The notes beneath the pieces are model-generated. The model saw only the letters and a list, made by a program, of their open reading frames with translations, had not been told where the DNA came from and searched no databases. This document shows, one piece after another, positions 39,583-57,892 of a stretch of DNA of 64,000 nt; positions within the stretch are counted from its first letter, which is position 1, and the number at the start of each line of letters is the position of its first letter. The DNA is from a virus. The DNA lies in IMG/VR virus record IMGVR_UViG_3300045996_000607, positions 22,292-86,291 of that record; one strand, given 5' to 3'. The translations under genes were made by a program, and so were the position numbers.

Positions 39583-40214
39583 TGCGGCCGTTCCTTGGCG
39601 ATGCCTTCGGCCCCGGCTGTCGCGGCTGCGCCGTCGAGCTGCTGCGCATCTCGCCCCTTCGGGCTTCCATCCGTATCGTGGAGCGCACGGCAAGCCGCGA
39701 AGTACGCCCACGCGGTTGGCGGGAGCCATGTGTTGCCGTCCTCGTCGGTGAAAGCCTCAACCCGCAACAGGTCTTGGACACTCGCATATGCGACCCCGAC
39801 CGACTTGCCATCTTGGTTGTAGATGCCCCGCGCCACCGCCTCTGGCGTGCTGATGATGCGGTCGATAAGCACCCACTGCTCCAAGGTCAGCCGAGCGTCT
39901 ATCTGACACCGGAACCCACTATCGGCCTTGAGCGTGACCTTCACCGTCGACGTGTCGAACGGCAGCCAGCCCCCTTGACCGGGGCACCACTTGCTTTGGT
40001 GCCACTCGGTTTCATCGATCTGTCCGCAAGCCACGCATCGAGGCGTTCCATCGCGCACCTTCTTGCTGAGCGGGTGAAAGCGAAGGACCTCCTTGCCGCC
40101 GATGTCGATCGTATCCTCCCGCGAGGGATTGAAGCCGCTTGCGGCCGAGACCGCAGGGCTCGGTTCACGAAAGCCCGTACCCGTCAGGGGCGCGCCTAAA
40201 TCTCCATCATTCAC
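39579..40214 (-). CDS. Hypothetical protein bounded by inverted E elements
   Basis: ATGA coupling at both ends; begins in E2 and ends in E1. Confidence 0.55.
   Translation of the reverse strand: MNDGDLGAPLTGTGFREPSPAVSAASGFNPSREDTIDIGGKEVLRFHPLSKKVRDGTPRCVACGQIDETEWHQSKWCPGQGGWLPFDTSTVKVTLKADSGFRCQIDARLTLEQWVLIDRIISTPEAVARGIYNQDGKSVGVAYASVQDLLRVEAFTDEDGNTWLPPTAWAYFAACRALHDTDGSPKGRDAQQLDGAAATAGAEGIAKERPQ
39597..39678 (-). repeat. Branched-hairpin element E1
   Basis: GATGGAAG-CCC(GAA)GGG-GCGAGA-TGC(GCA)GCA-GCTCGAC-GGC(GCA)GCC-GCGACAGC-CGGG-GCC(GAA)GGC-ATCGCC. Confidence 0.7.
40121..40196 (+). repeat. Branched-hairpin element E2
   Basis: Near-identical to E3, with a compensatory stem change. 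Confidence 0.85.
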
Positions 40215-40468
40215 GCGGTATCTCCTTGATTCATCCCTGCTATTTCAGCGTTGAGGGAGGGGGTGTAGGCGACGCGATCCCAATCCGACGTAGGGTTGGT
40301 GCAGAACTCCCCGTGCTTCCATCCGTAGCCGCGCATGTGATACATTCCGCCGTCACGACACAGGTAGGGGCCGTTATCCCAATCACGCGGGGCGTTCGGA
40401 TAGTCGGGATGATCGGGGCCGTATGCCTTCATCCCGACAGGAATCGTCAATGCAAGAAGATCGCTCAT
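40211..40468 (-). CDS. Small protein, IP.GMK...P.DWD.GP.L...VAYTP family
   Basis: Shares its domain with 44792-45601. Confidence 0.6.
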   Translation of the reverse strand: MSDLLALTIPVGMKAYGPDHPDYPNAPRDWDNGPYLCRDGGMYHMRGYGWKHGEFCTNPTSDWDRVAYTPSLNAEIAGMNQGDTA

Positions 40469-40683
40469 CAGAAGCCTCCCGTCTTGGCGTGCTGAAAGCA
40501 GAACAGGTTGCCCAGCCCATGACCGTCGCGACGCTTGCAGCGGTAAAGATGCAGAGCCATCGACCCGCGCCCCGCGTACCCGGCGCATCGCCCCGGAGAC
40601 CAAGCCAACGGCTCGTGATCCTCTATGAAGCACTCGTATCGGCGCGCCTTGACGCGATCGATTTCAACAGCATCCTCGCTCAT
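40468..40683 (-). CDS. Small Cys/His hypothetical protein
   Basis: GGAGG RBS; C.R..GHG...FC.QH. Confidence 0.6.
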   Translation of the reverse strand: MSEDAVEIDRVKARRYECFIEDHEPLAWSPGRCAGYAGRGSMALHLYRCKRRDGHGLGNLFCFQHAKTGGF

Positions 40684-40720
40684 GCTACACCTCCCAGGCG
40701 CGCTATCTCGGATTCGGGGG

Positions 40721-40963
40721 TCATTTGGCATTCTCGTGTTGAGCCGGCCACCGCTCCGGGTGCTCGAGCGCGTCGCGAAGGTCCGCCGCCATCTGCGGGT
40801 TCTCGTGCTGAATACTGGCGGCATAAGTCTCGATGGCGCGCCAAGCGTGAATGTCGCCGGCAAAGTCGAGCACGATGTAGCGGGCCTCGGGTCGGCAGGG
40901 TTTTCCGTCCGTGCGGGTGACGTTGAAGCGAGCCTCGAACCCGCCGTTGGTTTCGCGTGTCAT
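40721..40963 (-). CDS. Small hypothetical protein
   Basis: GGAGG RBS; F.V.RTDG...YIVLD..D.HA. Confidence 0.6.
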   Translation of the reverse strand: MTRETNGGFEARFNVTRTDGKPCRPEARYIVLDFAGDIHAWRAIETYAASIQHENPQMAADLRDALEHPERWPAQHENAK

Positions 40964-41676
40964 GCTGCCATAGCCTCCAGTCTGTCGGCGTAGTTTCGGC
41001 GCCCGCGCCACGCGGCATGGGCTTCAACGAACAGGTCCGCCTGCCTGTCCTGCCAGTCGTATCGGTGACCGTTCTGCGCGAGGCTGGTGCTGTCACAGCT
41101 CACAAACGGATAGTCGCTCCCGACCAGCACGCCGCGCAGCATGTGCAGCGGGTGCCAGCGGTTGCCCATCAGGGCCGCAACTTCGTCCATTTTCCAGCGG
41201 TATGCATCGCAGCCGACCGGCTCGAGTTTGGGGTCGCCAATCCAACCAAGGCAAACCCTGTCGTAGCGCTCGCAGAGACGGCCTAGACGATCAATGGGGC
41301 CGTCCATATGCCAGACCGGCGCACCCCGTGACGTGCCGTGCGGCCACTCGTTCAGCAGCCCATCGTTGAGCTGGGACGGAGCGGCGGGTTTGTCGGGGAT
41401 GATGGCCCAGCGACCGGGTTGCCAGAGCCGTTGATCGAGCCACGCGTAATATGCTGACCAATCCTGCCGCCCCGCATCCATAGGATCGGCACCAGCCCGA
41501 ACGGCCTGCATCCAGTAGGAGAACGCGCCGTTGTCGTACATCAGGAACGCGCAAAGCTGCTCCGCCAGCGTCGTCTGATCGGGCCGGAAGAAGCTGACGC
41601 ACGCGGCCCGCTGGCGCATAACCTGCTCGAACGCCGCGTTTGGCGTCATGGGAGTGCCGTGGTAGCAGAGCGCCAT
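40960..41676 (-). CDS. TGT/DpdA-like protein (putative DNA base-exchange enzyme)
   Basis: YHGTP, DNGAFS, IIPD, PVWH, HMLRG, DSTS motifs; coupled to a QueD-like gene. Confidence 0.6.
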   Translation of the reverse strand: MALCYHGTPMTPNAAFEQVMRQRAACVSFFRPDQTTLAEQLCAFLMYDNGAFSYWMQAVRAGADPMDAGRQDWSAYYAWLDQRLWQPGRWAIIPDKPAAPSQLNDGLLNEWPHGTSRGAPVWHMDGPIDRLGRLCERYDRVCLGWIGDPKLEPVGCDAYRWKMDEVAALMGNRWHPLHMLRGVLVGSDYPFVSCDSTSLAQNGHRYDWQDRQADLFVEAHAAWRGRRNYADRLEAMAA

Positions 41677-41984
41677 CACCGCAGCGCCTCCGGGACGGGC
41701 CACTCTGCGCCCATGCGCTCACGGTCGCGCTTGACGACAACGCGGACGCAATTGACCAGCGAGCCCACTGCGCGGGCGATGTCCTCGTTCCACTCAATCT
41801 CAGGCGGGAGCTGCTTGCCTTCCCAGTTGGCACACATGGCGTCGAGCATCGCCAGATAGCAGCGCGCGTCGGTGTGCCGCCGAACCCGGAACGCCGCCTC
41901 TACCTCCCACCTATGGACGTGAGGCTCAGCCTCCGCGCACAGATGCGACGCGGTGAACGAGCTCCAGACGGTAATGAGGGCCAT
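41676..41984 (-). CDS. QueD/PTPS-like T-fold protein (divergent)
   Basis: FTASH...HVHRWEVE and NEDIA; GCGGAG RBS before ATG 41984. Confidence 0.6.
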   Translation of the reverse strand: MALITVWSSFTASHLCAEAEPHVHRWEVEAAFRVRRHTDARCYLAMLDAMCANWEGKQLPPEIEWNEDIARAVGSLVNCVRVVVKRDRERMGAEWPVPEALR

Positions 41985-41998
41985 CTCCGCCGTTTCGT

Positions 41999-42160
41999 GT
42001 TTTCCACTCGCGCCCAGAACACCAGCCTTTTCAATGGCCGGTTTTCCAAGAACGCAAGGTGACTCTGGCGGATTTTCGTGCATGACACCTATCGCAATTT
42101 TAAGTGGATATCGACGCATATACTAGGCAGACTTTGGGGTGTTTTCCAAGCGTTTTCGAT
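41999..42160. other. Putative intact attP (arm-type repeats flanking an AT-richer core)
   Basis: GTTTTCCA at 41999, 42041 and 42141, plus GTTTTCGA at 42152, around the int stop; phage genes lie on both sides. Confidence 0.55.
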
Positions 42161-43184
42161 TGCCGCTCTTTGTTCCCTCCCATTTCAGGACCGCCGCAGA
42201 GCCGAGACGCTTGTTGTTCCGGCGCCGTGCGTAGTGCTCGACCATCCCGAGCGATTGCCCTGTGATCGATGAAACCTCGCCCGTTGAGCAGCCGGCCTCG
42301 AGCAGGGCATTCACAGCATTCTTGCGGAGGCCGTGGGGCACCACCTCGTAGCTGAGTGTGCGGGCAAACCGTTGCAGGTGCTTGCGCAGCGTGTCGACCT
42401 TCATTGGCCGGCCATTGCGACCATAGAGGATCGTCAGGGCCTCGCGCGGGGTTGCTTCCAGCAGCGCCTTCAGGTCGCTGTGTAGCTGGATATCCAGCTC
42501 CTTGCCGGTCTTCTGCTGCTTCACATAAACGAAGCCGTCGCGGATATCGGACCATCGCATCTTGCACACGTCGCCGATCCGCTGGCCGGTATAGTAGAGC
42601 AGGCCCACCGCGAGCCCGACGTTTGCATCAGCAAGCGCGGCCTCAATCAGATCCTCGGGCCATGGCTCGTGCTCCTCCTCCGACTTCTCGCCGAAGTCGA
42701 TGCCATCGGTAGGGTCGATCTTGATCCATTCCCGCTTGATCGCGAACCTCATCAGGTTCTGCATCACGGCGAGCACCATCTTTGCGGCGCCCGGTGTTGC
42801 TGACATCTTGTCGAGGAGCGCCACGATGTCGGAGCGCTCAACTTCAGCAAGCGGTGCATCCCCCATCTCGGCCTCGATCCGCCTGATGTAGATCAGGTAG
42901 GTGTGCTGCGTGCCGTTGCTGCGGCGGGTGAACTTCTCGCTCTTCTGGTACGCGCGGCTCAGGTCGGCAACCGTAGTGTCGCTCTTGAGCGCAGCCCGCG
43001 ACGTGCGAGCGGCCAGCAGCGAAGCATACACACCGCCATAGCTCGGGTCCGACTTCTTGGGCAGGCGCTTGTAGACACGCTTGCCGGCGACCGTCTGACC
43101 GGTGTCGAAATACTCGTAGTCATTGCCCCGCGCGCGGACCTTCTTGATGAAGTCGGGATATGAGGCGACCAGTTTACGCGGCAT
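42123..43184 (-). CDS. int: Tyrosine integrase
   Basis: YTGQRIGD, QQKT, HGLRK, SITGQS...HY catalytic residues. Confidence 0.95.
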   Translation of the reverse strand: MPRKLVASYPDFIKKVRARGNDYEYFDTGQTVAGKRVYKRLPKKSDPSYGGVYASLLAARTSRAALKSDTTVADLSRAYQKSEKFTRRSNGTQHTYLIYIRRIEAEMGDAPLAEVERSDIVALLDKMSATPGAAKMVLAVMQNLMRFAIKREWIKIDPTDGIDFGEKSEEEHEPWPEDLIEAALADANVGLAVGLLYYTGQRIGDVCKMRWSDIRDGFVYVKQQKTGKELDIQLHSDLKALLEATPREALTILYGRNGRPMKVDTLRKHLQRFARTLSYEVVPHGLRKNAVNALLEAGCSTGEVSSITGQSLGMVEHYARRRNNKRLGSAAVLKWEGTKSGNRKRLENTPKSA

Positions 43185-43407
43185 TGTAGAGCTTCGATTT
43201 GCTGCGCCAGTTCGGCGTGGTGTCGTTGGTCAGGCGGTTCAGGTGCTCATCGATCGCCACGCGGCTCCAATGCTCACTGTTGCCCAGCTTGACCGGTCCC
43301 GGCAGCCGGGCTGCGGCAACCTCGCGCTCGAACTCCGCCGCGGTCAAGTCGCAGTACAGGGCAGCCGTTGCCCGGCGCATCATTCGAGGCCAGCCTGGTG
43401 CCGTCAC
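43174..43407 (-). CDS. xis: Excisionase/AlpA-like protein
   Basis: PRMM...AALY......F...V...RLP.P...W...ID; immediately upstream of int. Confidence 0.7.
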   Translation of the reverse strand: MTAPGWPRMMRRATAALYCDLTAAEFEREVAAARLPGPVKLGNSEHWSRVAIDEHLNRLTNDTTPNWRSKSKLYNAA

Positions 43408-43799
43408 GGCGTTCCCTCCCCCACCCCCGCGCTGCCGGTCTTGCCGGGGCTGAGGGCCTGCAGGATCTCCCGGCTTTCGGTGCAGAACCAGTCGTAGGCG
43501 CCCTGCCAGTCGGCGCGCTCTATATCCTCGTCGTCCATCTCGGATGTCGGGCGCTGTTTGGCCATTATGCGCAGCCGCTCGATCGCGTCAGAATCCGTCT
43601 CCGGATCGAGCGTCGATGCGACCGGGCGGGTGTTGAGGCGATGGCGGGCGATCTTCTGCATCTTCTCCCAATGGTCGAACTCGCCATTAAGGATGCGCTG
43701 AAACCCGCCCTCATTCGGCACCACGTCGAAGCCCATCAGGAAAATGAAAAGCTCCCGATCAGCCCGCACCACCTCTGCCGGCGCGCTTGTTTCAGTCAT
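43404..43799 (-). CDS. Early hypothetical protein (DR..F/ARHR domain)
   Basis: Coupled; shares a domain with 2916 and 49884. Confidence 0.6.
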   Translation of the reverse strand: MTETSAPAEVVRADRELFIFLMGFDVVPNEGGFQRILNGEFDHWEKMQKIARHRLNTRPVASTLDPETDSDAIERLRIMAKQRPTSEMDDEDIERADWQGAYDWFCTESREILQALSPGKTGSAGVGEGTP

Positions 43800-43975
43800 G
43801 GGACGTAATCCTGAAGGCGGGTTTCTCGCGCGGGTCCGTCTCTTCCCACATCTGGCCGATCATGCTGCAGCTAAGCGCGTGAATCATATCAGCGGTGAGG
43901 CGGCATCCCGTCCCCCGGTTATGGGCTCGGCGCATCCGATTGAGTGCGTCTTGGGCGGCAGCGAGAACACTCATA

Positions 43976-44512
43976 TCACCCCTCCTCCCTCTGTTCGTTG
44001 CTGGCATCGTCCCGCCCTCCGTCGTTGGGGGTGAGGGCTGCTCGGGCTTTTGCGCGCAACCGGATGATCTCTTTACCCGCTTGGATCATCATTCGGGCGG
44101 CGTTGACATCTCCCTGCCTCTCAAGGGCTCGCGCCATCACGCCAAGGTCTTTCGTCCGGACAAAGCCATCCTCCCCCGTCTCGCCGCTATGGGAGGGGAT
44201 CAAGGCAAGGATGGCGTCGGCGGCGGAAAGTTGATCCAGCCAATGCGCCGCCGCCATATCGGACCCGCGCGCGAATGTCGGCCCGCTGACCTTGGCCGCA
44301 ATAATTTCCGCCACCCGTTCCCGCGAAGGAACCGCCGGCATTGCGGCTGCGGGTTCGGTGAAGGCGAGCATGGCGCGGATTATCGCGTCGTTGTCTTGCA
44401 TTGTCAGGTTGACGCGCCCATTCGCCACGTCTTCTCGCTTCTGCTGCTCGCGCGCTTGACGCAGCACCTCTCGCGCACACTCGGCCAGCGCCTCGGATCG
44501 GGAGTTGGTCAT
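43976..44512 (-). CDS. Early hypothetical protein
   Basis: RE.VA.II...ADAILAL motif, also seen in 1785-2450. Confidence 0.55.
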   Translation of the reverse strand: MTNSRSEALAECAREVLRQAREQQKREDVANGRVNLTMQDNDAIIRAMLAFTEPAAAMPAVPSRERVAEIIAAKVSGPTFARGSDMAAAHWLDQLSAADAILALIPSHSGETGEDGFVRTKDLGVMARALERQGDVNAARMMIQAGKEIIRLRAKARAALTPNDGGRDDASNEQREEG

Positions 44513-44603
44513 AGGGAGGTGTCCTTGGTGGCGAGGGCAAGTGCAGCGCGCACAGCGGCTTCCTGAATGCGGGCAAGCGCGATCTCGTAGGCTTTGATCT
44601 GCT

Positions 44604-44795
44604 TCATCGCGGCTTCCTTCCCGTGCCGCTGCACTCGCTGGGCGACCGACATTCCTGCGCGCGCTCACAATGCGTCGAGGGGCAGCGCTTCCAGTTGTCC
44701 AGAATGTCTGTGCGGCACCAATCCTCGTGATAGGTAAGGTGCCCGCATTCCTTGCACGGACCCTTTGGCCCTTCGAACAGGCTGAGGATGCTCAC
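44604..44795 (-). CDS. Small Cys-rich protein
   Basis: CPSTHCERAQECRSPSEC; GAGGAG RBS. Confidence 0.55.
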   Translation of the reverse strand: MSILSLFEGPKGPCKECGHLTYHEDWCRTDILDNWKRCPSTHCERAQECRSPSECSGTGRKPR

Positions 44796-45601
44796 GCCCC
44801 CTCCTCCGCTTCGGGCTGCGGGGTCGCGGCGGCTACCATCGCTCGCCAGATGTCGGCCAGCATGCCCGCATCCAAGTCGGGAATCGGTTCTTCGCCGATC
44901 CACGTTCCGTCCCACGCTGCGATGCACATCGCCTCGGTCGGCTCCCTCGGCACCACCACCAAATCCCCACCCGGCTGCACTGCCGGGGCGGAGAGAAGGG
45001 CGTCTGGCGAACGATAGTTTTTCAGCCACACCAAATGCTGGCGGGCGGCGATGCGGAGGAAGAGCGAAAGGCTAACCCCGCGTCGGTTCGCTGCCTTTGT
45101 GATCTCCTTCCATTCCGGCGTCGGCACCAGCGTTTGGATGTTCTTGCCGGGATCGCCTTCGCGAAATTCGGCAAGCATCTGATCTGCATCCGCGAGAAGA
45201 GCCGACTCCATCGCGTTGACCTCGCTGGCTGCGCAAAGGTATCCCGCGCGGAACACATGCCATTGCTGCTGCTGGCTCGGGGAAAGATTGTCGTAGTGCG
45301 CTCCTGCCCATTCGTCGGCAGAACTATCGGCCAAAGCCTCCCGCAAATCCTGCCCGGAGGATGCTGCTGGCGGGGTCTTCGGGGTGTAGGCGACAACCTT
45401 GTAATCGCCAGCGAAGTCTAGCCAGCGCTCATCTCCGGCGCGGTCTGGTAAGGCGAAGGTACGCCAGCCGCTCACACTCTCCATGAGCACCGGCCCACCA
45501 TCCCAGTCAGCAGGCGCACTATCGCCGCCGTGGCATTCCTTCATGCCCTCAGGGATAACCTCCCCCGAGGATGCGATGGGGGGCGTTTGGGGAGCGGTCA
45601 C
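44792..45601 (-). CDS. Multi-domain early hypothetical protein
   Basis: DWDGGPVL domain, RHH-like segment, VVVPREPTEAM...IWRAMVAAA C-terminus. Confidence 0.65.
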   Translation of the reverse strand: MTAPQTPPIASSGEVIPEGMKECHGGDSAPADWDGGPVLMESVSGWRTFALPDRAGDERWLDFAGDYKVVAYTPKTPPAASSGQDLREALADSSADEWAGAHYDNLSPSQQQQWHVFRAGYLCAASEVNAMESALLADADQMLAEFREGDPGKNIQTLVPTPEWKEITKAANRRGVSLSLFLRIAARQHLVWLKNYRSPDALLSAPAVQPGGDLVVVPREPTEAMCIAAWDGTWIGEEPIPDLDAGMLADIWRAMVAAATPQPEAEEGA

Positions 45602-46176: not shown

Positions 46177-46190
46177 GGTCGTTCTCCTCT

Positions 46191-48332: not shown

Positions 48333-48532
48333 GCTGCGATCCTCTCGTTGCGGAGTGCCGCCAGACGGGCGCGCACGGTGTTCAGGGCGGTGGCGATCCC
48401 CGGCAGGCGGGTTGCGCTCGCAGCGGTGCGGCAGCGGTCGTGCAGGTCCAGCAGCGTGGCGTAGCGCCGCGTCAGGTGAAGCTCAGCGGCGGACTTGCCG
48501 GGGCGATCGATGAAGGGGCGGAGCGCGCTCAT
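48329..48532 (-). CDS. Small hypothetical protein
   Basis: Coupled on both sides. Confidence 0.5.
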   Translation of the reverse strand: MSALRPFIDRPGKSAAELHLTRRYATLLDLHDRCRTAASATRLPGIATALNTVRARLAALRNERIAA

Positions 48533-48783
48533 GATGCGGCTCTCGCCTGATCGCGAACGTTATCCTTCAGCGCATTGAAGCGGTCGCGCGCGAGATCGTA
48601 TTCCGGCCCGCCGTGGAGCCCGTGCTCCAACATCGCGCCGAAAGCCTCGTCCATCGCTTCCAGGTGGTCGATGGCGTTAGCGAAGGTCCGCGAGCGCCAC
48701 TGCGAGGGATTGAAGCCCGTCAGGGCCGAGACCGAAGGGCTCGGTTCACGAAAGCCCGTCCCGAAGGGCGCACCATTACCCAC
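48529..48783 (-). CDS. Small hypothetical protein beginning in element E3
   Basis: GGAG RBS with GTG 48783; N-terminus GAP.GTGFREPSP.VSA..GFNPS shared with 39579-40214. Confidence 0.5.
   Translation of the reverse strand: MGNGAPFGTGFREPSPSVSALTGFNPSQWRSRTFANAIDHLEAMDEAFGAMLEHGLHGGPEYDLARDRFNALKDNVRDQARAAS
48702..48774 (+). repeat. Branched-hairpin element E3
   Basis: GCGAGGGATTGAAG-CCC(GTCA)GGG-CCGAGA-CC(GAA)GG-GCTCGGTTCACGAAAGCCCGT-CCC(GAA)GGG-CGCACC. Confidence 0.85.
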
Positions 48784-49168
48784 GGCTCTCCTCCCCTGCC
48801 TGCGAGAGGGGTTGGAGGGCGGCTCGGGCCGCTTTCTCCGCCTCTTCCGCGGCGGCAAACGTCCAGTCCAGACAGCCTTCGCGATCGTCCGCCCGATAGC
48901 TGTCAGCATCGTCAGGGTCGTTGGCAGCACGGATTTGCGCGAGTTGATCGGCGCACAGAGTCAATGCCGCCCGAAGCTCAGCCTGTCCGGCAATGCGGTG
49001 GCGATTGTTCCATGCCTTCTCTGCGCGCGCGACACTGGCAAAAACCGGCGTAGTGCAATCGCATTCGGTGCATACGATGCACTTCCATCCGCGCTGTCCG
49101 GCTTCGAAGCCAAGCTCTCCACGGCCTCCACAAAACGGGCACGGCAGCAGCTCGGTTGAACCACCCAT
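48776..49168 (-). CDS. Lar-like restriction alleviation protein
   Basis: ELLPCPFCGG...C.EC....P...A..AWN.R. Confidence 0.75.
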   Translation of the reverse strand: MGGSTELLPCPFCGGRGELGFEAGQRGWKCIVCTECDCTTPVFASVARAEKAWNNRHRIAGQAELRAALTLCADQLAQIRAANDPDDADSYRADDREGCLDWTFAAAEEAEKAARAALQPLSQAGEESRG

Positions 49169-49169
49169 C

Positions 49170-49421
49170 TCAAATACCTCCATTAGCCTGCGACCCGAAG
49201 GTGCGGCCTTGCTGTGCGGGGCGCTGGGCGTAAGACGTTGCTGCGCGGCTCTCAGGGAACAGCGACGACAACCGGTTTTGAATGACGTGGCCCGCTTCGC
49301 GCAGGCTAATTCCGGATTGCTCGCGGATAAGTTTTGCTGCGCCGATCCAATCCAGATCACTCGCCAGCTCCAGAAGTGCCGGCCAATCGTCGTGTTCGAA
49401 CTTCATCTCGTGAAATCCCAT
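49170..49421 (-). CDS. Small hypothetical protein
   Basis: I.A.KLIRE.SG.SLREA (L7/L12 C-terminal-like pattern). Confidence 0.5.
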   Translation of the reverse strand: MGFHEMKFEHDDWPALLELASDLDWIGAAKLIREQSGISLREAGHVIQNRLSSLFPESRAATSYAQRPAQQGRTFGSQANGGI

Positions 49422-50431: not shown

Positions 50432-50592
50432 GCAGCCACCAGATCGGCGGCGCTGTAAAACGAGCCAGTGTAGCCGCGAACCGCGCAGAGCAGGTAATGC
50501 AGCCCGCCTTCGATCCGACCGACAGTCAGGACACGATGCGGCGCCAGCTTGATCCGGACTTCGTCGCCGATCTGGAAAGTCTGGGTAGCCAC
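50428..50592 (-). CDS. First pL gene, small SH3/DUF2158-like protein
   Basis: FQIGDEVRIK; GGAG RBS; not in the ORF track. Confidence 0.5.
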   Translation of the reverse strand: MATQTFQIGDEVRIKLAPHRVLTVGRIEGGLHYLLCAVRGYTGSFYSAADLVAA

Positions 50593-50628
50593 GTTCTCAT
50601 CTCCAGCGCCGGTATGGCGTGGAGATCA

Positions 50629-50673
50629 TGTACCGCTTATCGGTACATCAGGTCAATACCGAAAATCGGTACA
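50629..50673. promoter_or_regulatory. Phage B left operators
   Basis: TGTACCGCTTATCGGTACA (50629-50647) and AATACCGAAAATCGGTACA (50655-50673). Confidence 0.8.
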
Positions 50674-50681
50674 CGCGAAAT

Positions 50682-51263
50682 TTATACGCGAGACCCCTTC
50701 CAGACCACCCTTCCAAGGATGATCGGATCGCAGTCGCTGGCGAGAAAGCCAACGTTATCAGGGTTGGCAGAGACTGGCTCGAAGCGTGCCGGCGACTTCT
50801 GGTAGCGCTTCACGGTCACCTCGTGGTCGCCGTTCTGCAGGAGATAGCTTTTACCCGGGCGCAGCTCCTTGTCGTCAGGGTCGACAACAACCCAGCCGCC
50901 ATCCTCTATCAGCAGGTCCATGCTGTCACCCTTCACCTCGACGGCGAAACTGCGGGGGCCAGCAACGCTAGAGGGAACCATCATCTTTCCGATGGGCATC
51001 TCAACAGCTTCGCGCCAATACCCAGCCGATGTCAAGCCGATGACGGGTACTGTTCGCACAGTATCATGCTCTATAGGTATTAACCCTAGGTACTCATAGA
51101 TGCGCGCCGCCTCATCAATTTGAACGCGCCTCTCACCCTTGAATATCTTGTTCGCCGCTGAACGGTGAGGAAGCCCGACAGCGTTGGCAAAGTGCTCAAC
51201 GGAGATGCCGCGCTCCTTAAGCGTGCGCCGCACCAGCTCGGGATCAAATCGGGTCTCGCTCAT
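50682..51263 (-). CDS. CI-like repressor (HTH + S24), phage B
   Basis: HTH, TSAG, GDSM, TVKR; start trimmed to ATG 51263. Confidence 0.9.
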   Translation of the reverse strand: MSETRFDPELVRRTLKERGISVEHFANAVGLPHRSAANKIFKGERRVQIDEAARIYEYLGLIPIEHDTVRTVPVIGLTSAGYWREAVEMPIGKMMVPSSVAGPRSFAVEVKGDSMDLLIEDGGWVVVDPDDKELRPGKSYLLQNGDHEVTVKRYQKSPARFEPVSANPDNVGFLASDCDPIILGRVVWKGSRV

Positions 51264-51296
51264 GGACCGATTATGCCGCACCGCATCAAACGGCGC

Positions 51297-51349
51297 CCCT
51301 ACTAAGATCGGTACAGACCCACTTGCGTTATGTACCGATAGTCGGTACA
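51297..51349. promoter_or_regulatory. Phage B right operators
   Basis: TGTACCGATAGTCGGTACA (51331-51349) and a half-conserved site ending TCGGTACA at 51315. Confidence 0.75.
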
Positions 51350-51359
51350 CGTCGTCCTC

Positions 51360-51599
51360 ATGAGCGTAGTCCATGATATCATCGACGCCTTCGGCAACCA
51401 AGTCGCGATGGCAAATGCCACCGGCATTTCGCAGCAGACGATCAGCGAATGGGCTAACCGCGAGCCGCCCGAGATTCCCCCATGGCGCCGCTCGACCATC
51501 GCAACGGTCGCGAATGCCAAGCGGATCGTGCTCTCGCCCGAGGTGCTGGCCTACCTGCATTCTACCGAACGCACCAAGCGCGCGAAGCAGGCAGCCTGA
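51360..51599 (+). CDS. Cro-like HTH protein, phage B
   Basis: IIDAFGNQ..MANATGISQQTISEW...IP. Confidence 0.85.
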   Translation: MSVVHDIIDAFGNQVAMANATGISQQTISEWANREPPEIPPWRRSTIATVANAKRIVLSPEVLAYLHSTERTKRAKQAA

Positions 51600-51811
51600 T
51601 GCTCCCCATCACCCCCCAAGACCGCGCCGAGTGGATTGAACACGCCCACGCCCGGGACATGGACCAGACGCAGGTACGTCACCGCCGCACCATTGCCGGC
51701 CGGATAGTACTGGCTGCTGCGCTGGCGCTGTTTTGCGCAGCTGTGATCGGGGTCTCCGTTGCAGCCGTCGAGATCGCTTCCGACTGGCTGCACAGCGGGA
51801 GGCCGATGTGA
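51599..51811 (+). CDS. Small membrane protein (homolog of 6296-6451)
   Basis: TGATG coupling; TM followed by VEIASDW. Confidence 0.6.
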   Translation: MLPITPQDRAEWIEHAHARDMDQTQVRHRRTIAGRIVLAAALALFCAAVIGVSVAAVEIASDWLHSGRPM

Positions 51812-51956
51812 TCCTCTGGGCCGCAATCTCCAGCGCCTTCCAGCGCTTCGCGCCCCTTCCCCGCCAGCAATCCAACAACCGCCTCCACACGGGCGGCGAT
51901 CTCATCGGGGCTGATCAGGGCGGCGGGTTCATTCATCTTGATCGGGAGCACTACTG

Positions 51957-52427
51957 ATGTCCGACCAGACAATCGTCCGGCGCTATCGCGTTCCTTCCGC
52001 TTCAAGTCTGCTCGATGCGCTTGCCGACAACCTCACCGCCATCAAGGATGAGGACGGCCACACGGACGCAGAAATCGGCGCCATCCTGCACAAGGGCGAG
52101 GATCAGGCCCGCAAGTATCGCGCCGGCATAGCGGAGATGGGCGTCGTCGCATTCCTCCGCGGCTGCGCGACTTGGAACGGGCGGTTCGCCAACGATGCGC
52201 TGGCGCTGATCGGCATGAAGCTGACCCCGCTGGCGGCTCGCCCGCAATCCGATCGCAAATTTGGCGTGATCCTGTCCCGCCTGAAGCTGGCGGTCGATGA
52301 GGCGCTCGAGAACGACGATCAGATCGATGACGCCGAGCTGGACGCTATGCGCTCGCTTCTGGATGAGGCTGGGCAGGCGATAGACGCGCGCCGGGTTGCT
52401 CCGACGCTGAAGGCAGTGCGGTCGTGA
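51957..52427 (+). CDS. CII-like regulator, phage B
   Basis: Position after L0; HTH-like segment; ALEND.QIDDAE C-terminus. Confidence 0.55.
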   Translation: MSDQTIVRRYRVPSASSLLDALADNLTAIKDEDGHTDAEIGAILHKGEDQARKYRAGIAEMGVVAFLRGCATWNGRFANDALALIGMKLTPLAARPQSDRKFGVILSRLKLAVDEALENDDQIDDAELDAMRSLLDEAGQAIDARRVAPTLKAVRS

Positions 52428-52727
52428 GCGAGCCCCTCCTTCGCAACGATCCGGCGTTCCTCGCATGGTACGCACAGGTGCTCGAGCACGAAGCGTCCGT
52501 TCGCCCTGGGCAGAACGTCGCATGGATGCAAGCCGGCGCTGAACGTGCCCGCAAAGTAGCGGGTCGCAAGCCCGAAGCAGGCGAGGCAGCAGCATGAGCC
52601 CCGTCGCAGCACCCGGCATCTACGCGCGCACGGCGGAGGGGAAGATCCTCTTCGCCATGCCGCTCAAGCCCGTTCCCGCTCCCGGCTGCACCCACTGGAA
52701 CACCTGCATCGCACAACGGAGGAAGGG

Positions 52728-53012
52728 ATGATCCACGTCGCCGAAATCCAGCACGCCGTTGCCAAGCACTACGGCCTGACCATGGCCGACCTGCGCGGGC
52801 CGGGCAGGAAGCGGGTGTTCATCGCCCCGCGGCATGTCGCCATGTACCTCGCCCGCCGGATGACGCCACAGAGCTTCCGGCAGATTGGCAACCGCTTCGG
52901 CGGGCGCGACCACACGACGATCCATTCCGCCTGCCAGAAGATCAAACGCCTCCGCGCGACCGATCCGCAGCTCAGCGAGGACATCAGCGCCATCGTGAGT
53001 ATGATCCCATGA
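52728..53012 (+). CDS. Stand-alone DnaA C-terminal (domain IV) HTH protein
   Basis: IQ.AVA.HYG....L....R......RHVAMYLARRMT..S...IG..FGGRDHTTI. Confidence 0.9.
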   Translation: MIHVAEIQHAVAKHYGLTMADLRGPGRKRVFIAPRHVAMYLARRMTPQSFRQIGNRFGGRDHTTIHSACQKIKRLRATDPQLSEDISAIVSMIP

Positions 53013-53149
53013 CGCCGCTCGAGCTGACCATCGACATGGCCGCTGCGTACATCGACGCGCGCCTTGCCGCCCGCAAGATGCTCCGAGATGTCCGTCAAGA
53101 CGCGGCAAGGAAAGGCGCCGAAACGAAGCGGAGGGCACGCCCATGCTGA
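53009..53149 (+). CDS. Small conserved protein (homolog of 9318-9452)
   Basis: AAAYIDARLAARK. Confidence 0.65.
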   Translation: MTPLELTIDMAAAYIDARLAARKMLRDVRQDAARKGAETKRRARPC

Positions 53150-53490
53150 ACCGCACTCGCGCGCTTGGCCGGCTCAAGGTGGGCACCAAGAACAAGACCG
53201 AACTTGCCTACGAGGATCAGGTTCTGAAGCCTGAAATGCAGGCCGGTTTCGTGTCGTGGTATCGCTTCGAGGGCCTGAAGCTGCGCCTCGCTGACAACAC
53301 GTTCTACACTCCTGACTATGCCGTCATGCTGGTGAATGGTTTGATCCAGTGCCGCGAGGTCAAGGGCTTTTGGACCGACGACGCCCGAGTGAAGATCAAG
53401 GTCGCAGCGGACCAATACCCCTTCGAGTTCATCGCAGTCAGCCAGCTTCGCAAGAAGGATGGCGGCGGCTGGAAGGAGGAGCGGTTTTGA
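53143..53490 (+). CDS. PD-(D/E)XK endonuclease (DUF1064-like), in the RusA slot
   Basis: NKTE..Y, FYTPDY, EVKG, ARVKIK. Confidence 0.75.
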   Translation: MLNRTRALGRLKVGTKNKTELAYEDQVLKPEMQAGFVSWYRFEGLKLRLADNTFYTPDYAVMLVNGLIQCREVKGFWTDDARVKIKVAADQYPFEFIAVSQLRKKDGGGWKEERF

Positions 53491-53567
53491 CCAGTTCTCC
53501 ACATGCTCAAACTCGACTTGTCGCATCGGTCTATCGCGGTTTCGCAAACGCGGGGATGAAATAACCC

Positions 53568-53759
53568 ATGGAGCACACCCGCATTTCTTCGCTTCCGACG
53601 CGTCTCAATGCAGAGGCCGCATGGGAAGAGTATCACGCGCTTGCGATGGCGGCGGATGCTGATCGGCGTCTATGGACCGATCGGGAGCACTGCGAGGCGA
53701 TGGCCCGTGCTCATGCCCGGTGGCAGAGCCTGTTCCTTGCCATGGATGCTGCGGCATGA
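53568..53759 (+). CDS. Small hypothetical protein
   Basis: ATGA-coupled to dnaB. Confidence 0.55.
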   Translation: MEHTRISSLPTRLNAEAAWEEYHALAMAADADRRLWTDREHCEAMARAHARWQSLFLAMDAAA

Positions 53760-55144
53760 CGGCGCTGGCGTTCCCGGCCAGCCAAGGTCTCACCAACACC
53801 GATAGCGAGTTCGCCCTGCTCTCGGCGATCCTCTACGAGAGCAAGCGGGTGGAGACGGTGGTCGATACCCTCCGAGAAGAGCATTTCTCTGAACCGTTTT
53901 TCGGCCGCGTCTACGGCGTTGTTGCCCGCGAGTTCAGCAAGGGCAACCCGCTCAATCCGTTGACGCTGCGCCCGTTCATCGAGGCAGACGAATCCTACCA
54001 GATGCATGGGGCGATGCAGTTCATCGCCAACCTGACGAACTCCAATTCGCTGCTGGTCAACACCAAGGCGACGGCAGCCCAGATCAAGGAACTGGCACGA
54101 CGCCGGGAGCTGATCGCCGGGATGCGCGAAGCCCTCCACATGGCGGGCGATGTCAACGAGACGATCGAAAGCGTGGTCGATGCCGCAGAGGCAGCGATCG
54201 TGGACGCCGCGGACAAGTCGGACACAATCCGCCAGCCCAGCGCCGCGCAGGCCATGAGTTCGCTCCTGAAGGCAGCGGAGAGCCCCAAGCGCTCGATCAG
54301 GTCGACTATCATCCCGAGCATGGATGACCTGCTCGGCGGTATGCGGCCCAAGCAGCTGATCATCGGCGGCGGACGCCCCGGGATGGGCAAGACAGCCGCC
54401 GCCCTCTCGTACAGCCTAGGGGCGGCTCAGGCAGGCCATGGCGTGCTCTACGTCTCGCTGGAGATGGGCGCAGAGGAGCTTGCTGCGCGAATGGCAGCGG
54501 ATCTGGCGTTCAACGGCAATACCGGCGTGCTCTACGCCGACATCAACAGCGACAACCCCACGCGCCGCGCGCTCCAGGCTATGTACGACGCGCAGAAGAT
54601 GCTGGAGGATATGCCCTTCCACATCATCGACGCTGGCGGATTGACCCTCGCCCAGCTCGAGCTTCGGGTGCGCAGGTTCAAGCGCCGTTTCGCAGCGAAG
54701 GGCGTTACTCTGGATCTGGTGGTCGTGGACTACCTCCAGCTGCTCCGCACCGATGACAAGCGCCAGTCCGCATATGAGGCTGTCTCGGAGATCAGTCGGC
54801 GCCTGAAGGGGATCGCCAAGGACTATGATGTCGCGGTGTTCGCACTCGCCCAGCTGAGCCGCGGTGTTGAGAGCCGCAGCGACAAGCGCCCCCAGCTTTC
54901 GGACCTGCGGGACAGCGGTCAGATTGAGCAGGACGCGGACGCCGTGCTCTTCTTCTACCGGCACGCCTATTACCTCCGGCAGGCGCTCCCGTCGAACGAG
55001 AATGACCCGATGTACGCCGCCACCATGGCGGAGATCGAGAACGTCGAGGATGCGATCGAGTTCGTCTGCGCGAAGCGCCGCAACGGGGTCACAGGCGCCT
55101 CTGTGGGCGAGTTCCACGGGAAGTATCAGGCGGTGCGTGGGTGA
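53756..55144 (+). CDS. dnaB: DnaB-family replicative helicase
   Basis: GGRPGMGKT, SLEM, VDYLQL, QLSR, DLRDSGQIEQDAD, KRRNG. Confidence 0.95.
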   Translation: MTALAFPASQGLTNTDSEFALLSAILYESKRVETVVDTLREEHFSEPFFGRVYGVVAREFSKGNPLNPLTLRPFIEADESYQMHGAMQFIANLTNSNSLLVNTKATAAQIKELARRRELIAGMREALHMAGDVNETIESVVDAAEAAIVDAADKSDTIRQPSAAQAMSSLLKAAESPKRSIRSTIIPSMDDLLGGMRPKQLIIGGGRPGMGKTAAALSYSLGAAQAGHGVLYVSLEMGAEELAARMAADLAFNGNTGVLYADINSDNPTRRALQAMYDAQKMLEDMPFHIIDAGGLTLAQLELRVRRFKRRFAAKGVTLDLVVVDYLQLLRTDDKRQSAYEAVSEISRRLKGIAKDYDVAVFALAQLSRGVESRSDKRPQLSDLRDSGQIEQDADAVLFFYRHAYYLRQALPSNENDPMYAATMAEIENVEDAIEFVCAKRRNGVTGASVGEFHGKYQAVRG

Positions 55145-55845
55145 GTGGCTGGGTGTCCATGCACCGCGGCTGGCGCGATTGTGAAGCGTTCGAGGATCGA
55201 CGCGACCCGATGGCCGACGCGGACGCATGGTTCTGGATCATCGAACATACGGCGTGGAAGCCGCTTCGCCGCACTGCGGGTCAGGGCCAGTCTGTGATGC
55301 TGAAACGCGGCCAAATTCACATCTCCGATCGCTCACTGGCCACTGCTTTTCACTGGGATAAAAAGCGGGTTCGACGCTTCCTTGAGCGCCTTGAGCAGCA
55401 CGGGATGGTGCTTCAAAATCGGGACCAGTCAGGGACCATTTTAACTGTCTGTAATTACGACAAATATCAGCAGATTTCGGAACCGTCGGGACCAGCTAAG
55501 GACCAGTCAGGGACCACACAAGAACAAGGGAAACAAGATTCTGCTTCTAACGAAGCAGGCGTTCCGCCCGTCGACACCGTGAAAGCCATCTTCGAGCTTG
55601 GCGTCACGCTCTTGACCGCATCGGGACAAACCGAACGCGACTCCCGCTCCATCGTGGGCCGTTGGCGCAAGAACTACTCGGACAGCCGAGTTCTGGAAGC
55701 ACTGGTCGACTGCCAAAATCGGCGGATCAGCAACCCCGTGGAATGGATGCCCCGCCGCCTCTCCGCCTCTGGCGCACAGGCTCCGGGCAGCGACCTCGCC
55801 TCGCTGCTTGAGCAATCCTCCCGCTATCGAAAGCAAGCAGCATGA
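55141..55845 (+). CDS. Replication initiator (O-like), phage B
   Basis: [20 protein letters not shown]; internal iterons. Confidence 0.8.
55421..55540. other. Putative replication origin of phage B
   Basis: Five GGACCA repeats in two clusters (55421-55438, 55488-55516), followed by an A-rich tract. Confidence 0.65.
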
Positions 55846-56300
55846 GTGGAAGCGTCAACAAGGTAATCATCGTTGGCAATCTCGGCCGAGATCCGGAGAG
55901 CCGATCGTTCCAGAACGGCGGCAAGGTGGTCGAGCTTCGCATCGCCACCTCGGAGAGCTGGAAGGACCGCAACTCGGGCGAGCGCAAGGAAAAGACCGAT
56001 TGGCACACGGTCAAGGTCTTCAACGAAGGCCTCGCCAACGTCGCCGAGAAGTATCTCCGCAAGGGCTCCAAGGTCTACATCGAGGGCGCGCTGCAGACCC
56101 GCAAATGGCAGGACCAGAGCGGGGCCGACCGGTATGCCACGGAGATCGTGCTTCAGGGCTTCAACAGCGTCCTGACAATGCTCGATGCGCCGAACGGGAA
56201 CGACCGCGGCGCCGATCGCGAGCAATCGCAGGGCGGGCAATCAGGCGGCAGCTTCGGCGGCGGTTTCCCCGATGATCTTGACGATTCGGTGCCGTTTTGA
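55842..56300 (+). CDS. ssb: Single-stranded DNA-binding protein
   Basis: [16 protein letters not shown]...TRKWQD; acidic DDSVPF tail. Confidence 0.95.
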
Positions 56301-56497
56301 GGGCGGTTCTCGCCAAGATCGTCGCGGGTTCGATGATCGCCGGTGCGGCTCTGCTCGCGGACGCTGCACGCGATAGCGATCGAAACCCGGAGGGCGAAGA
56401 CGGCACGGCTTCGTCGCGGAGCGATGAGAGCGCGGGCCCGTCAGGGCATCGCACCGATACCGGAGCCCTCCCCGACAGCATGAAGGAACAGGCATGA
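56297..56497 (+). CDS. Small ORF ending in element E4 and linker L4
   Basis: TTGA and ATGA coupling; hydrophobic N-terminus. Confidence 0.4.
56371..56455 (+). repeat. Branched-hairpin element E4
   Basis: GATCGAAA-CCC(GGA)GGG-CGAAGA-CG(GCA)CG-GCTTCG-TCGC(GGA)GCGA-TGAGAGC-GCGG-GCCC(GTCA)GGGC-ATCGC. Confidence 0.7.
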
Positions 56498-57844: not shown

Positions 57845-57892
57845 GCGCAGCGCGAACACGCCACACGGGCTTTAAAATCGAAAGGACGGGAT

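Follow-up and report, generated by a model that had tools for sequence, protein, structure and literature searches.

A multi-hairpin element present in four copies in a virus record was found to belong to a widespread, apparently undescribed family carried by temperate phages, conjugative plasmids and ICEs. Over 250 copies, spread across viral contigs, bacterial genomes and plasmids, were matched in covariance-model searches, and no Rfam family matched the element at permissive thresholds. Copies were confined to mobile-element islands (4-11 per genome or plasmid searched), with none scattered along chromosomes. Folded single-stranded DNA is its most likely working form. It is moderately probable that the element is a cis-acting module of mobile elements, active on one strand and read by a conserved host factor.

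Copies in the record and their common fold

The window analyzed is the whole 64,000-nucleotide stretch at positions 22,292 to 86,291 of the record. A covariance model seeded on viral copies (R2) recovered the four copies of a preliminary description, E1 to E4, within a few bases of the positions given there and with scores of 67-77 bits. The full 86,291-bp record contained no copies beyond these four. The features are as follows.

39595-39680, minus strand: E1, 75.3 bits with R2, with an extra P4b hairpin
40118-40198, plus strand: E2, 68.9 bits with R2, short form without P4b
48699-48776, plus strand: E3, 76.5 bits with R2, short form
56369-56455, plus strand: E4, 67.4 bits with R2, with the P4b hairpin
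39681-40117, minus strand: E1/E2 interval, 437 bp inside a head-to-head pair, coding for the conserved core of protein P0001
39579-40214, minus strand: open reading frame of 211 aa that reads the reverse complement of E2, the core and then E1
56466-56501, plus strand: junction block, 36 nt just 3' of E4, matching 12131-12166 of the other prophage at 100% identity

All four copies lie at gene ends, as originally described. E1 has the same sense as the local genes; past its 3' end, at a distance of 13 nt, come the ORF 39579-40214 stop and the ATG with which the next gene starts. E2 is antisense, with its 3' end 14 nt off the GTG start of the same ORF, for which no Pfam or PHROG family match was obtained. 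The 3' end of E3, also antisense, meets a junction, read directly off the sequence, between the stop of a Lar-like gene (48776-48778) and the GTG start (48783) of ORF 48529-48783, which encodes 84 aa. E4 is sense to the local genes and is flanked by the SSB gene (55842-56300) and gene 56494-56745. An ORF covering E4 (56297-56497) is doubtful, since it has a TTG start and is absent among the ORFs whose third-position GC is 0.75 or higher.

Likeness among the four copies within the record was limited. By BLAST, the sole significant match was between E2 and E3 (89% identity over 58 nt); the likeness of E1 and E4 was weak (nhmmer E 0.2-12), and these two were tied to E2 and E3 via bridging copies from other contigs. 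Folding of E1-E4 was no better than that of shuffled sequence (z -1.3 to +1.2).

The element is 70-100 bases long and consists, in order, of a closing stem P1 (5-6 bp), P2, P3, P4, an optional P4b, an optional P5 and a CC(A) tail. The fold contains a three-way junction; P2, the junction stem, is composed of AGGGAUUGAAG and CGAAAGCCC, and the P4 hairpin has a conserved A facing a G. Conservation stops directly past P1' and CC. Among 107 distinct viral copies, 94.0% of cells were paired, compared with 70.7% after shuffling and 35-48% with partners slid; both sides changed in 23 of 25 pairs, and the covariation score was 0.525 versus 0.136. Similar pairing and covariation figures were obtained for the 20-sequence seed. 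Copies from the same genome were about 55% identical, yet every stem was kept through compensatory changes, which argues for long-term selection on the fold. Collectively, these data strongly support the covariance-model structure, and the shared scaffold and covarying stems of the preliminary description proved real.

The composition of stems and loops was also determined. Of 2586 paired cells, 2404 were Watson-Crick, 26 were G-T and 25 were A-C. Triloops of P3 and P5 were GNA in 127 of 149 cases, confirming the reported dominance of such loops, and C(GNA)G in 103 of 149. Among 88 tetraloops in the same hairpins, 11 were GNRA and none was UNCG.

Phage copies at gene edges

Phage copies were distributed almost evenly with respect to local genes (44 sense, 51 antisense and 14 mixed). 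A start codon with a ribosome site within 60 nt was present at the 3' end of 51 of 103 copies, as compared with 17 at the 5' end. In 29 of the 103, including E1 and E4, the ribosome site and start codon past the 3' end were on the same strand as the element.

The arrangement of E1 and E2 as inverted ends about a cargo of some 440 bp recurred: 21 of 24 close pairs in viral contigs were head-to-head. These pairs bracket unrelated small genes and have outer ends 5'-TGG...CCA-3', and pair partners were no more similar to each other than random copies. Homologues of P0001 (P0004-P0008) all share the core, with element-coded ends present in some and absent in others. The unrelated proteins P0009-P0016 terminate in near-identical copies of E1, and such copies were detected in 67 metagenome contigs. 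A single 5' flank was joined to as many as 15 different 3' flanks. E4 adjoins a mosaic junction: in prophage 1 the 36-nt block terminates the helicase gene, and the helicase gene of prophage 2 is separated from this block by a loader gene, the SSB gene and E4. Phage copies mark synteny breakpoints, the edges of swappable genes, in keeping with the association with gene gain and loss proposed earlier.

Gene families near phage copies included Erf, SSB, exonuclease, RusA, NinB, ordinary integrases and terminase, with Lar-like and SSB families represented by the neighbours of E3 and E4. Clustering of the ORFs within about 5 kb on each side of 156 loci revealed no recombinase or HUH nuclease common to the loci. 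Neither target duplications nor clean empty sites were seen in these loci, taken without contigs for comparison. Of the earlier proposal of a recombination or cassette signal, the association with gene gain and loss was upheld, and no dedicated recombinase or HUH nuclease came to light within these flanks.

The view that copies are translated in frame applied to part of the family. In GC-rich DNA, 72 of 75 copies were read through by open frames, whereas 18 of 32 copies in AT-richer contigs lay outside any long frame, and some had stops in all frames. The frame through the element also varied between copies.

Copies in conjugative elements

Frpo (ssiD) of the F leading region was reportedly described by Masai and Arai in 1997. 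Using a model built from viral copies only, two copies were detected in the F plasmid, at 58,090-58,173 (minus strand, 78.6 bits) and 63,478-63,561 (minus strand, 62.7 bits). The first is located about 100 nt 3' of a hairpin of about 330 nt upstream of ssb, which we take to be Frpo. Three significant matches were found in the leading region of IncN R46, all on the plus strand and in intergenic blocks. In pIPM3H3-GES5, a 690-nt unit occurs three times with 98-99% identity; each unit carries a long hairpin and a promoter, and one of three matches to the element lies at its far end. A MOBF Pseudomonas plasmid had three matches, and Tn4371-type ICEs were also matched by the viral-built model; a long hairpin with an adjoining element was seen in pIPM3H3-GES5 and in a Tn4371-type ICE.

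The copies of F, R46, pIPM3H3-GES5, the MOBF plasmid and the ICE backbones were all on the template strand of leading-region genes, opposing the coding strand of ssb, DUF932, parB or ard genes. Copies were co-oriented at 28 of 28 multi-copy genome loci, although these were mostly related ICEs and hence not independent. Conjugative elements differ in this from phages, whose copies face both ways. This template strand would be the transferred strand, which enters the recipient, judging for ICEs and the other plasmids by gene orientation and textbook F biology. The reverse complement of the plasmid element lies 5-16 nt past the stop codon of the upstream gene. In accessory regions, copies were found sense-upstream of the cargo genes chrB, higB, relB-Shedu and GNAT, a position that fits an RNA leader also.

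The F leading region contains single-strand promoters, ssp1a/ssp1b, that are related to Frpo (bioRxiv 10.64898/2026.01.09.698686; PMC11541004). The element shares with Frpo a predicted fold and a place on what would be the transferred strand in leading regions, ahead of ssb, psiB and anti-defence operons. However, Frpo consists of a single long, imperfect hairpin in which -35 and -10 boxes are rebuilt, whereas the element is branched and short, a junction whose stems have 3-6 bp and which lacks promoter boxes. In phages it also stands alone, with no long hairpin beside it. CUP (conserved upstream) repeats of the IncN leading region of pKM101/R46 (Delver and Belogurov 1997, as cited in PMC6289460) are likewise repeated blocks ahead of leading-region genes, and the 690-nt cassette found three times in pIPM3H3-GES5 is comparable. 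In the accounts of CUP consulted, the name refers to the ArdK operator and promoter part, with a 13-nt consensus, and a GC-rich folded module at the other end is absent from the descriptions. In plasmids and ICEs the copies accompany single-strand promoters, all in one orientation, and are not cassette ends.

Proposed mode of action and alternative explanations

Strand-specific folded single-stranded DNA signals of mobile elements include the ssi signals (G4-type and phiX-type), RSF1010 ssiA/ssiB and the sso of rolling-circle plasmids and ICEBs1. The element would resemble these if it is single-stranded, as its sequence suggests, and we know of no sequence likeness to them. The two signals of RSF1010 are in opposite orientations, which recalls the head-to-head pairs in phages, and stable GNA mini-hairpins were first noticed at the phage G4 origin. 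Early second-strand starts of F near Frpo-type promoters depend on RNA polymerase and are lost with rifampicin (bioRxiv 10.64898/2026.01.09.698686), which weakens a primase or PriA start-site role for F.

A structured RNA is an unlikely alternative. It might serve the gene past its 3' end as a 5' leader or a riboswitch-like element, act as a small or antisense RNA, or, in the form of its reverse complement, stabilize the 3' end of the upstream message. The conserved junction and covarying stems resemble a riboswitch or ribozyme core, and the phage copies followed by a same-strand start, the sense copies ahead of accessory cargo genes and the plasmid reverse complements just past stop codons all speak for such an RNA. 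However, half of the phage copies are antisense to local genes, the conjugative backbone copies are all antisense to the surrounding operons, G-U accounts for just 1% of cells (the same as A-C), C(GNA)G triloops dominate while the usual RNA tetraloops are missing or rare, and Rfam gave no match. An RNA leader is unlikely given the near-pure Watson-Crick pairing, the triloops and the equal sense and antisense placement in phages, and the template-strand position of all conjugative copies further favours single-stranded DNA. G-U scarcity could be due in part to high G+C content, and, since Watson-Crick pairs hold for either strand, the complementary strand folds too, which leaves room for an RNA or two-strand role. 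The radC and STAXI motifs share with the element neighbours such as ssb, antirestriction, integrase and radC genes in mobile DNA. STAXI has been discussed as possible single-stranded DNA, and its UUCG loops were taken by its authors as a sign of RNA (PMC2864571); the loops of the element are GNA triloops instead, and the radC and STAXI models matched no copy at E up to 10 in short stretches that included a radC upstream region. The earlier preference for structured single-stranded DNA over a cis-acting RNA is thus supported indirectly, by Watson-Crick pairing, GNA loops, the two-way orientation of phage copies and the strand rule.

Less probable still is an attC-like site at which a site-specific or single-strand recombinase captures and moves gene cassettes, with crossover at the 3' CC(A) end. 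The sharp 3' boundary followed by variable DNA, the ICE and plasmid cargo genes directly 3' of the element in the same direction, the 21 head-to-head phage loci, the optional element-coded ends and the identical block beside E4 are as such a site would predict, and the element resembles attC and the DUF1874 motif, considered a possible complex attC (PMC5737381), in a fold kept more than sequence, a gene-edge position and a plausible single-stranded role. However, ordinary homologous recombination at a conserved 85-bp block would give an identical mosaic pattern, partners of a pair resemble each other no more than random copies do, neither a common recombinase nor target duplications were found as described above, and the F, IncN and ICE backbone copies occupy conserved spots by single-strand promoters rather than between cassettes. 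In addition, attC forms one imperfect hairpin, which bears R and L boxes and is located 3' of each cassette in co-oriented arrays beside intI, whereas the element is branched and forms inverted pairs in phages; no IntI-type partner was seen among ORFs near the loci, and the Rfam search, which should include attC-like and DUF1874 motifs, returned no match. A selfish MITE- or REPIN-like element, functionless for its carrier and tolerated at gene ends by in-frame read-through, as are the palindromic elements of Rickettsia, would explain the inverted pairs, the frames crossing copies in GC-rich phages, the database proteins with element-coded tails and the near-identical E1-type copies in metagenomes. 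This is very improbable in view of the compensated stems, the restriction to mobile-element islands, and the position and strand by single-strand promoters conserved across unrelated plasmid families; ORF clustering near loci revealed no partner transposase. Finally, both E2 and E3 encode GTGFREPSP.VSA..GFNPS at ORF N-termini and the E1-coded tail recurs among database proteins, as expected of a conserved peptide motif with nucleotide likeness merely secondary. That reading, which has next to no probability, is contradicted by differing frames (GFNPS in some copies, ASIPS in others), reading on either strand, compensatory stem substitutions and copies outside long frames; conservation does not follow the amino acids.

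Against folded single-stranded DNA count the lack of an obligatory single-strand stage in double-stranded DNA phages and the two-way orientation of phage copies compared with the one-way orientation of plasmid copies. If the element does act in this form, it would be a cis-acting module recognized by a host factor that is widely conserved and takes part in DNA replication or transcription. In conjugative elements the acting strand would be the leading-region template strand, with the module just 3' of Frpo-type long hairpins, where it may shape or shield the adjoining single-strand promoter, stall or start second-strand synthesis, or load a protein. In phages its 3' end is placed at gene starts in either orientation, often as a head-to-head pair about one small gene, and the conserved sequence at gene edges may double as a linker during gene exchange.

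Identity and fold of the family

The record of which the window forms part is 86,291 bp long, with 63% G+C. Two related prophage-like genomes lie in it at a distance of about 44 kb; they represent tandem prophages or else two variants joined by the assembly. Identity between the two phages is 69-94% across the structural and terminase genes (for example, 13335-13634 against 57848-58147 and 21613-21912 against 63006-63305). No tRNA or tmRNA was present. The four copies of the element reported in the preliminary description (E1 to E4) were all found in place in the window; within the record only the second prophage carries the element, with zero copies in the first. The second prophage and its border have the following features:

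42123-43184, phage-type integrase of the second prophage, the sole integrase of the window region
40960-41703, minus strand, queuine tRNA-ribosyltransferase-like gene (phrog_887, E 1e-34), adjoining the integrase and lying between the two phages
Second prophage, leftward early operon with exonuclease genes and a Lar-like gene
Second prophage, CI-like repressor
Second prophage, rightward operon with a DnaB-like helicase, a DnaD-like loader and SSB

The Lar-like restriction-alleviation gene (in ORF 48776-49360, minus strand) terminates in GTGGGTAA at 48776-48783, which overlaps the GTG start of the next ORF and suggests translational coupling right at the 3' end of E3.

Significant likeness inside the record was limited to E2 and E3, which were 89% identical over 58 nt by BLAST. 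E1 and E4 were marginal by nhmmer, and neither program tied them to E2 and E3. Minimum-free-energy folding of single copies gave no gain over shuffled sequence (z -1.3 to +1.2), so energy alone is uninformative in this GC-rich DNA. From the window alone, half of the reported pattern could be the product of pattern-seeking in such DNA.

The kinship of E1 to E4 was settled by copies from other contigs. A 17-nt word of E2 and E3 led to five viral contigs bearing the element in AT-richer DNA, and the copies in these contigs combine the GCGAT...ATCGC closing stem of E1 and E4 with the core of E2 and E3. At least one of these copies (L004) is surrounded by stop codons in all frames, sense and antisense. 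Further pattern scans yielded 26 distinct viral copies. The structure was drawn by hand on a 20-sequence seed, from which the covariance model R2 was built; 94% of cells in the seed were paired, and 21 of 28 pairs had changed on both sides. In this structure, stem P1 closes the element, which ends with a CC(A) tail. P2 pairs GGGAUU with AA(G)CCC and is altered on both sides to CGGAUG/CA(G)CCG in E1 and GCGAUC/GA(G)CGC in E4. P3 and P4 are hairpins, of which P4 keeps an A opposite a G. Two further hairpins are optional, P5 and P4b, the latter being the 7-nt 'insertion' of E1 and E4.

R2 scored E1 to E4 at 67-77 bits and detected 109 copies at 67 viral loci. Among the 107 distinct viral copies, 94.0% of cells were paired, compared with 70.7% in shuffled sequence and 35-48% when partners were slid. 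The covarying stems described at the outset were borne out in the same copies, with both-sided change in 23 of 25 pairs and a covariation score of 0.525 versus 0.136 for the control. The fold that covariation supports is a branched junction of four to six helices. Family and fold alike are real. Species-representative genomes, scanned with a pattern, contained at least 119 matching stretches; the matches listed were mostly from Alpha-, Beta- and Gammaproteobacteria, and strong ones came from Selenomonas and a Bacteroidales MAG as well. When E2 was compared with cultured phages by BLAST, chance matches alone resulted, the conserved words being too short for that program, and megablast of the 20-kb region gave an ssb match alone.

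The repeat had been called unrecognised, and the family indeed remained unmatched in Rfam 15. The whole window gave zero matches at the gathering threshold (radC RF01754, STAXI, chrB, DUF1874 and known ribozyme classes included), at E up to 10 no relevant match came from short stretches around E1/E2, an ICE copy upstream of radC or a chrB-upstream copy, and nine further loci gave no match at E up to 1. A search of the published literature for the conserved words of the element found nothing relevant. A paper on mobile-element primases has no bearing on the element, as the covariation it treats is that of protein residues.

Conservation of a protein motif was rejected as an explanation, since one DNA is read in differing frames and on either strand: the frame used in E2 and E3 gives GFNPS, that of other phages ASIPS, and the opposite strand GIEARR. 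The earlier statement that the copies are translated in frame held for GC-rich contigs, where 72 of 75 copies lie inside long open frames, often on both strands; it failed for AT-richer contigs, where 18 of 32 lie in no long open frame. Some read-through of the element by ORFs is probably real. ORF 39579-40214, which spans E2, a conserved core and E1 and encodes protein P0001, probably starts upstream of E2 because no ATG lies between E2 and the core.

Copies on conjugative elements

R2 was built from viral copies alone, yet in F and in an IncN plasmid it recovered this fold from the strand that serves as template for the leading genes. The phage element and the module of F, R46 and pIPM3H3-GES5 are one family. 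The conjugative copies are as follows:

F plasmid, 58,090-58,173, minus strand, copy 1, opposite the leading genes (R2, 78.6 bits)
F plasmid, 63,478-63,561, minus strand, copy 2, opposite the leading genes (R2, 62.7 bits)
IncN plasmid R46, three copies in the ard/ccg leading region, strand opposite the leading genes (R2, 40.4, 28.4 and 24.8 bits)
pIPM3H3-GES5, three copies, opposite the backbone coding strand
MOBF Pseudomonas plasmid, three copies, opposite the backbone coding strand
Tn4371-type ICEs, copies with the neighbours int, radC, DUF932, parB, DUF736, DUF2958, repA, parA and relaxase; many of these loci are mutually related and not independent

On these conjugative elements, which represent several independent families, the copies were all co-oriented, being antisense to the backbone genes around them. 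In the accepted picture of F transfer, the recipient receives the template strand of the leading genes. Judged from gene orientation, the strand carrying the element on the other conjugative elements would likewise be the transferred one. RefSeq annotates a 'hypothetical protein' across an F copy (L411 9808-10164, 57807-58163 of its record, minus strand), a probable misannotation comparable to those of the window.

F copy 1 lies about 100 nt 3' of a hairpin of about 330 nt upstream of ssb, which we take to be Frpo, the single-strand promoter of the F leading region. A long hairpin with an adjoining element also occurs upstream of DUF932 in an ICE, and the layout recurs in a pIPM3H3-GES5 cassette as a 690-nt repeat in three copies that are 98-99% identical. 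These non-coding repeats (680-694 nt, 98.5-99% identical) are located as follows:

pIPM3H3-GES5, 14472-15165, non-coding repeat
pIPM3H3-GES5, 28384-29065, non-coding repeat
pIPM3H3-GES5, 31858-32550, non-coding repeat

Each precedes an operon (a primase operon, an ssb operon and a DUF3560-headed operon). Each also has the element at one end, a long hairpin mid-repeat (DNA fold z -7.2) and, at the other end, a sigma70-type promoter, TTGACG-17 nt-TACAAT, with a palindrome over the -35 box. The element itself does not resemble a single-strand promoter of the Frpo type: Frpo is a long hairpin that rebuilds -35 and -10 boxes on the transferred strand, whereas the stems of the element measure 3-6 bp and promoter boxes are absent from it, and the F copy lies beside the long hairpin rather than inside it.

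Cargo genes of ICEs and plasmids lie 3' of the element in the same direction, and include GNAT, relB-Shedu, a chrB operon and higB-immA. ICE-type copies (L215-L330) carry an extra conserved module, AAGCGAAGCGCGCAGCGCCGCAGGCGCGAA, 30 nt 5' of P1, which can be read as three successive GNA-triloop mini-hairpins, GC(GAA)GC, GC(GCA)GC and GCC(GCA)GGC. In alphaproteobacterial genomes (L223, L229, L236, L254, L261 and L318) another conserved module, GAAGTGCGCTGAGGGG-loop-CCCCTAAG, occupies the position 30 nt 5' of P1; its AAGTGCGC recalls, in our estimation, the nick region of MOBQ-type oriT sites. At other alphaproteobacterial loci (L227, L286, L217, L262 and L264), a clear TTGACA-17 nt-CATATT promoter lies 20-70 nt 3' of the element on the element's strand and is followed, about 6 nt on, by ATGACCAAAGC (or ATGGCAAAAAC), as if by a leaderless gene.

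Pairing and loops were examined along with orientation. Watson-Crick pairs filled 2404 of 2586 cells, and G-T (26) and A-C (25) cells were equally rare, so that wobble pairs favour neither strand. The predominance of GNA loops in the preliminary description was upheld, with 127 of 149 triloops in P3 and P5 being GNA and 103 being C(GNA)G, a class of loop that forms unusually stable DNA mini-hairpins. Tetraloops of the same stems were GNRA in 11 of 88 cases and UNCG in none. Relative to local genes, 44 viral copies were sense, 51 antisense and 14 mixed; these counts are approximate because orientation came from a crude, heuristic GC3-based gene caller that errs on small genes. Collectively, the pairing, the loops, the mixed orientation in phages and the strand rule of conjugative elements point away from a conventional RNA. 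A cis-regulatory leader or riboswitch would lie consistently sense and upstream of its gene; the phage copies showed no such bias, and in F, R46, pIPM3H3-GES5 and the MOBF plasmid the copies are antisense to every backbone gene. Pairing and loops of RNA type were likewise not seen, given the parity of G-T and A-C, the scarcity of GNRA and the absence of UNCG.

Placement in phages and gene exchange

In phages, 51 of 103 copies had a start codon with a ribosome site no more than 60 nt from the 3' end; for the 5' end the number was 17. The starts at 3' ends read away from the element in 29 cases and back through it in 28. E1 to E4 all have their 3' end at a gene start. Among close adjacent copies (no more than 700 nt apart), 21 of 24 pairs were head-to-head, with 5' ends facing at 130-700 nt; E1 and E2, described earlier as inverted ends, form one of these pairs. 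Seven of 12 loci with at least three copies read '-...-+...+', and none showed the reverse pattern. The stretches between pair members were unrelated, mostly coding and not AT-rich. Partners were no more alike (identity 0.556) than random copies (0.545), and mutual base pairing or concerted evolution of partners was rejected. Head-to-head pairs were also not supported as replication origins, since the gaps were not AT-rich (0.588 versus 0.599 in flanks) and 13 of 21 were open frames. Frequent neighbours were Erf, SSB, YqaJ-type exonuclease, RusA, NinB, Ref-like nucleases, ArdC-like proteins, integrase and terminase, which represent the early or recombination region; no gene family was common to all loci within about 5 kb either side of each copy.

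The proposed tie to boundaries of gene gain and loss was sustained by several observations. Homologues of P0001 retain the core, IDIGGKEVLRFHPL to PPTAWAYFAACRAL, and either possess the element-coded N-terminus (P0005, P0006 and P0008) or are without it (P0004 and P0007). The E1-encoded peptide forms the end of eight otherwise unrelated proteins, two of which also start with a peptide of the type encoded by the reverse complement. In 54 distinct E1-type metagenome copies, conservation ceases directly after P1' plus CC. Among 201 copies, the commonest 5' flank was joined to 15 different 3' flanks, and the commonest 3' flank to 5 different 5' flanks. E4 adjoins a 36-nt block (56466-56501) that is 100% identical in the other prophage (12131-12166). 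In prophage 1 this block directly ends the helicase gene; prophage 2 interposes the loader gene, the SSB gene and E4.

Both members of that block are at gene junctions. Further blocks are 100% identical between the phages (57112-57172 and 13191-13251; 52592-52638 and 8383-8429; 56893-56924 and 12942-12973). At 32-61 nt, with no BLAST similarity in the DNA around them, the identical blocks resemble the 'boundary sequences' of mosaic phages.

Known kinds of mobile signal were set against these data. An integron attC site is a single imperfect hairpin with R''/L'' and L'/R' boxes, and attC sites form co-oriented arrays, 3' of each cassette and next to intI; the element is instead a branched junction, its phage copies are head-to-head, and no intI-type partner was seen in the window region, where the only integrase is of phage type (42123-43184). 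A MITE or REPIN, for which partner ends more alike than those of separate elements, near-identical dispersed copies and a RAYT-type transposase would be expected, is improbable: partner ends were no more alike (0.556) than random copies (0.545), copies were confined to islands (4-11 per genome or plasmid searched), and no transposase family recurred within about 5 kb either side. A recombinase dedicated to the element is conceivable, though unlikely. The co-occurring recombinase sought on the earlier suggestion did not emerge, none being common to the loci within about 5 kb either side, and no clean empty site was found, the loci related to the P0001 family offering only distant zinc-ribbon relatives devoid of element copies. 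The mosaic pattern needs no special enzyme; a conserved 85-bp block at gene edges would be a natural site of homologous exchange.

Proposed function and significance

The most likely interpretation of these sequence comparisons is that the element would be a module acting in cis, which takes up its fold once its strand is unpaired and which a conserved host component would then read. In conjugation its place of action would be the entering strand, beside the single-strand promoters. Structures of this sort in F can start second-strand synthesis via RNA polymerase; they can also block it, and so lengthen the period of early gene expression, until they are cleared by UvrD (bioRxiv 10.64898/2026.01.09.698686). 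An ssi or sso priming signal would have primer synthesis beginning at the folded element or beside it. Because starts near Frpo-type promoters in F are RNA-polymerase-dependent (bioRxiv 10.64898/2026.01.09.698686), a primase or PriA start site is less likely. Since the element is on the 3' side of the promoter hairpin on the entering strand, a polymerase arriving from later-entering DNA would reach the element before that hairpin, and shielding or pausing is accordingly as plausible as priming. Single-stranded exposure in double-stranded DNA phages could occur in the lagging-strand template, through Erf/exonuclease recombination or by supercoil extrusion; the first of these would fit the divergent polarity of phage copies.

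A more sweeping idea, which we regard as rather improbable, is that the element might be a universal 'punctuation mark' of mobile DNA, read in single-stranded form by a conserved host protein such as SSB, RNA polymerase, a helicase such as UvrD or a primosome protein. In plasmids and ICEs, such a mark would programme the fate of the entering strand. In phages, the divergent layout would place every copy on the lagging-strand template as forks move away from a head-to-head pair, and the element would set pause points for forks or exonucleases as well as points of cassette swapping. If this were true, phages and conjugative elements would have one single-strand DNA code in common.

There are few folded signals of single-stranded DNA, for the most part simple hairpins (attC, Frpo, ssi and sso). 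Unlike these, the element is a branched module supported by covariation. F, resistance plasmids of IncN and other types, Tn4371-type ICEs and many temperate phages have it in common, across several phyla. Rfam has no entry for it, and we found no paper describing it. Since the plasmid copies flank single-strand promoters, which switch on anti-defence and establishment genes in a new host, the element is directly testable in F with existing assays. In GC-rich genomes the phage copies account for a class of ORFs that are spurious or extended, a point of relevance to annotation; they also mark the edges of exchangeable genes, which bears on the origin of phage mosaics.
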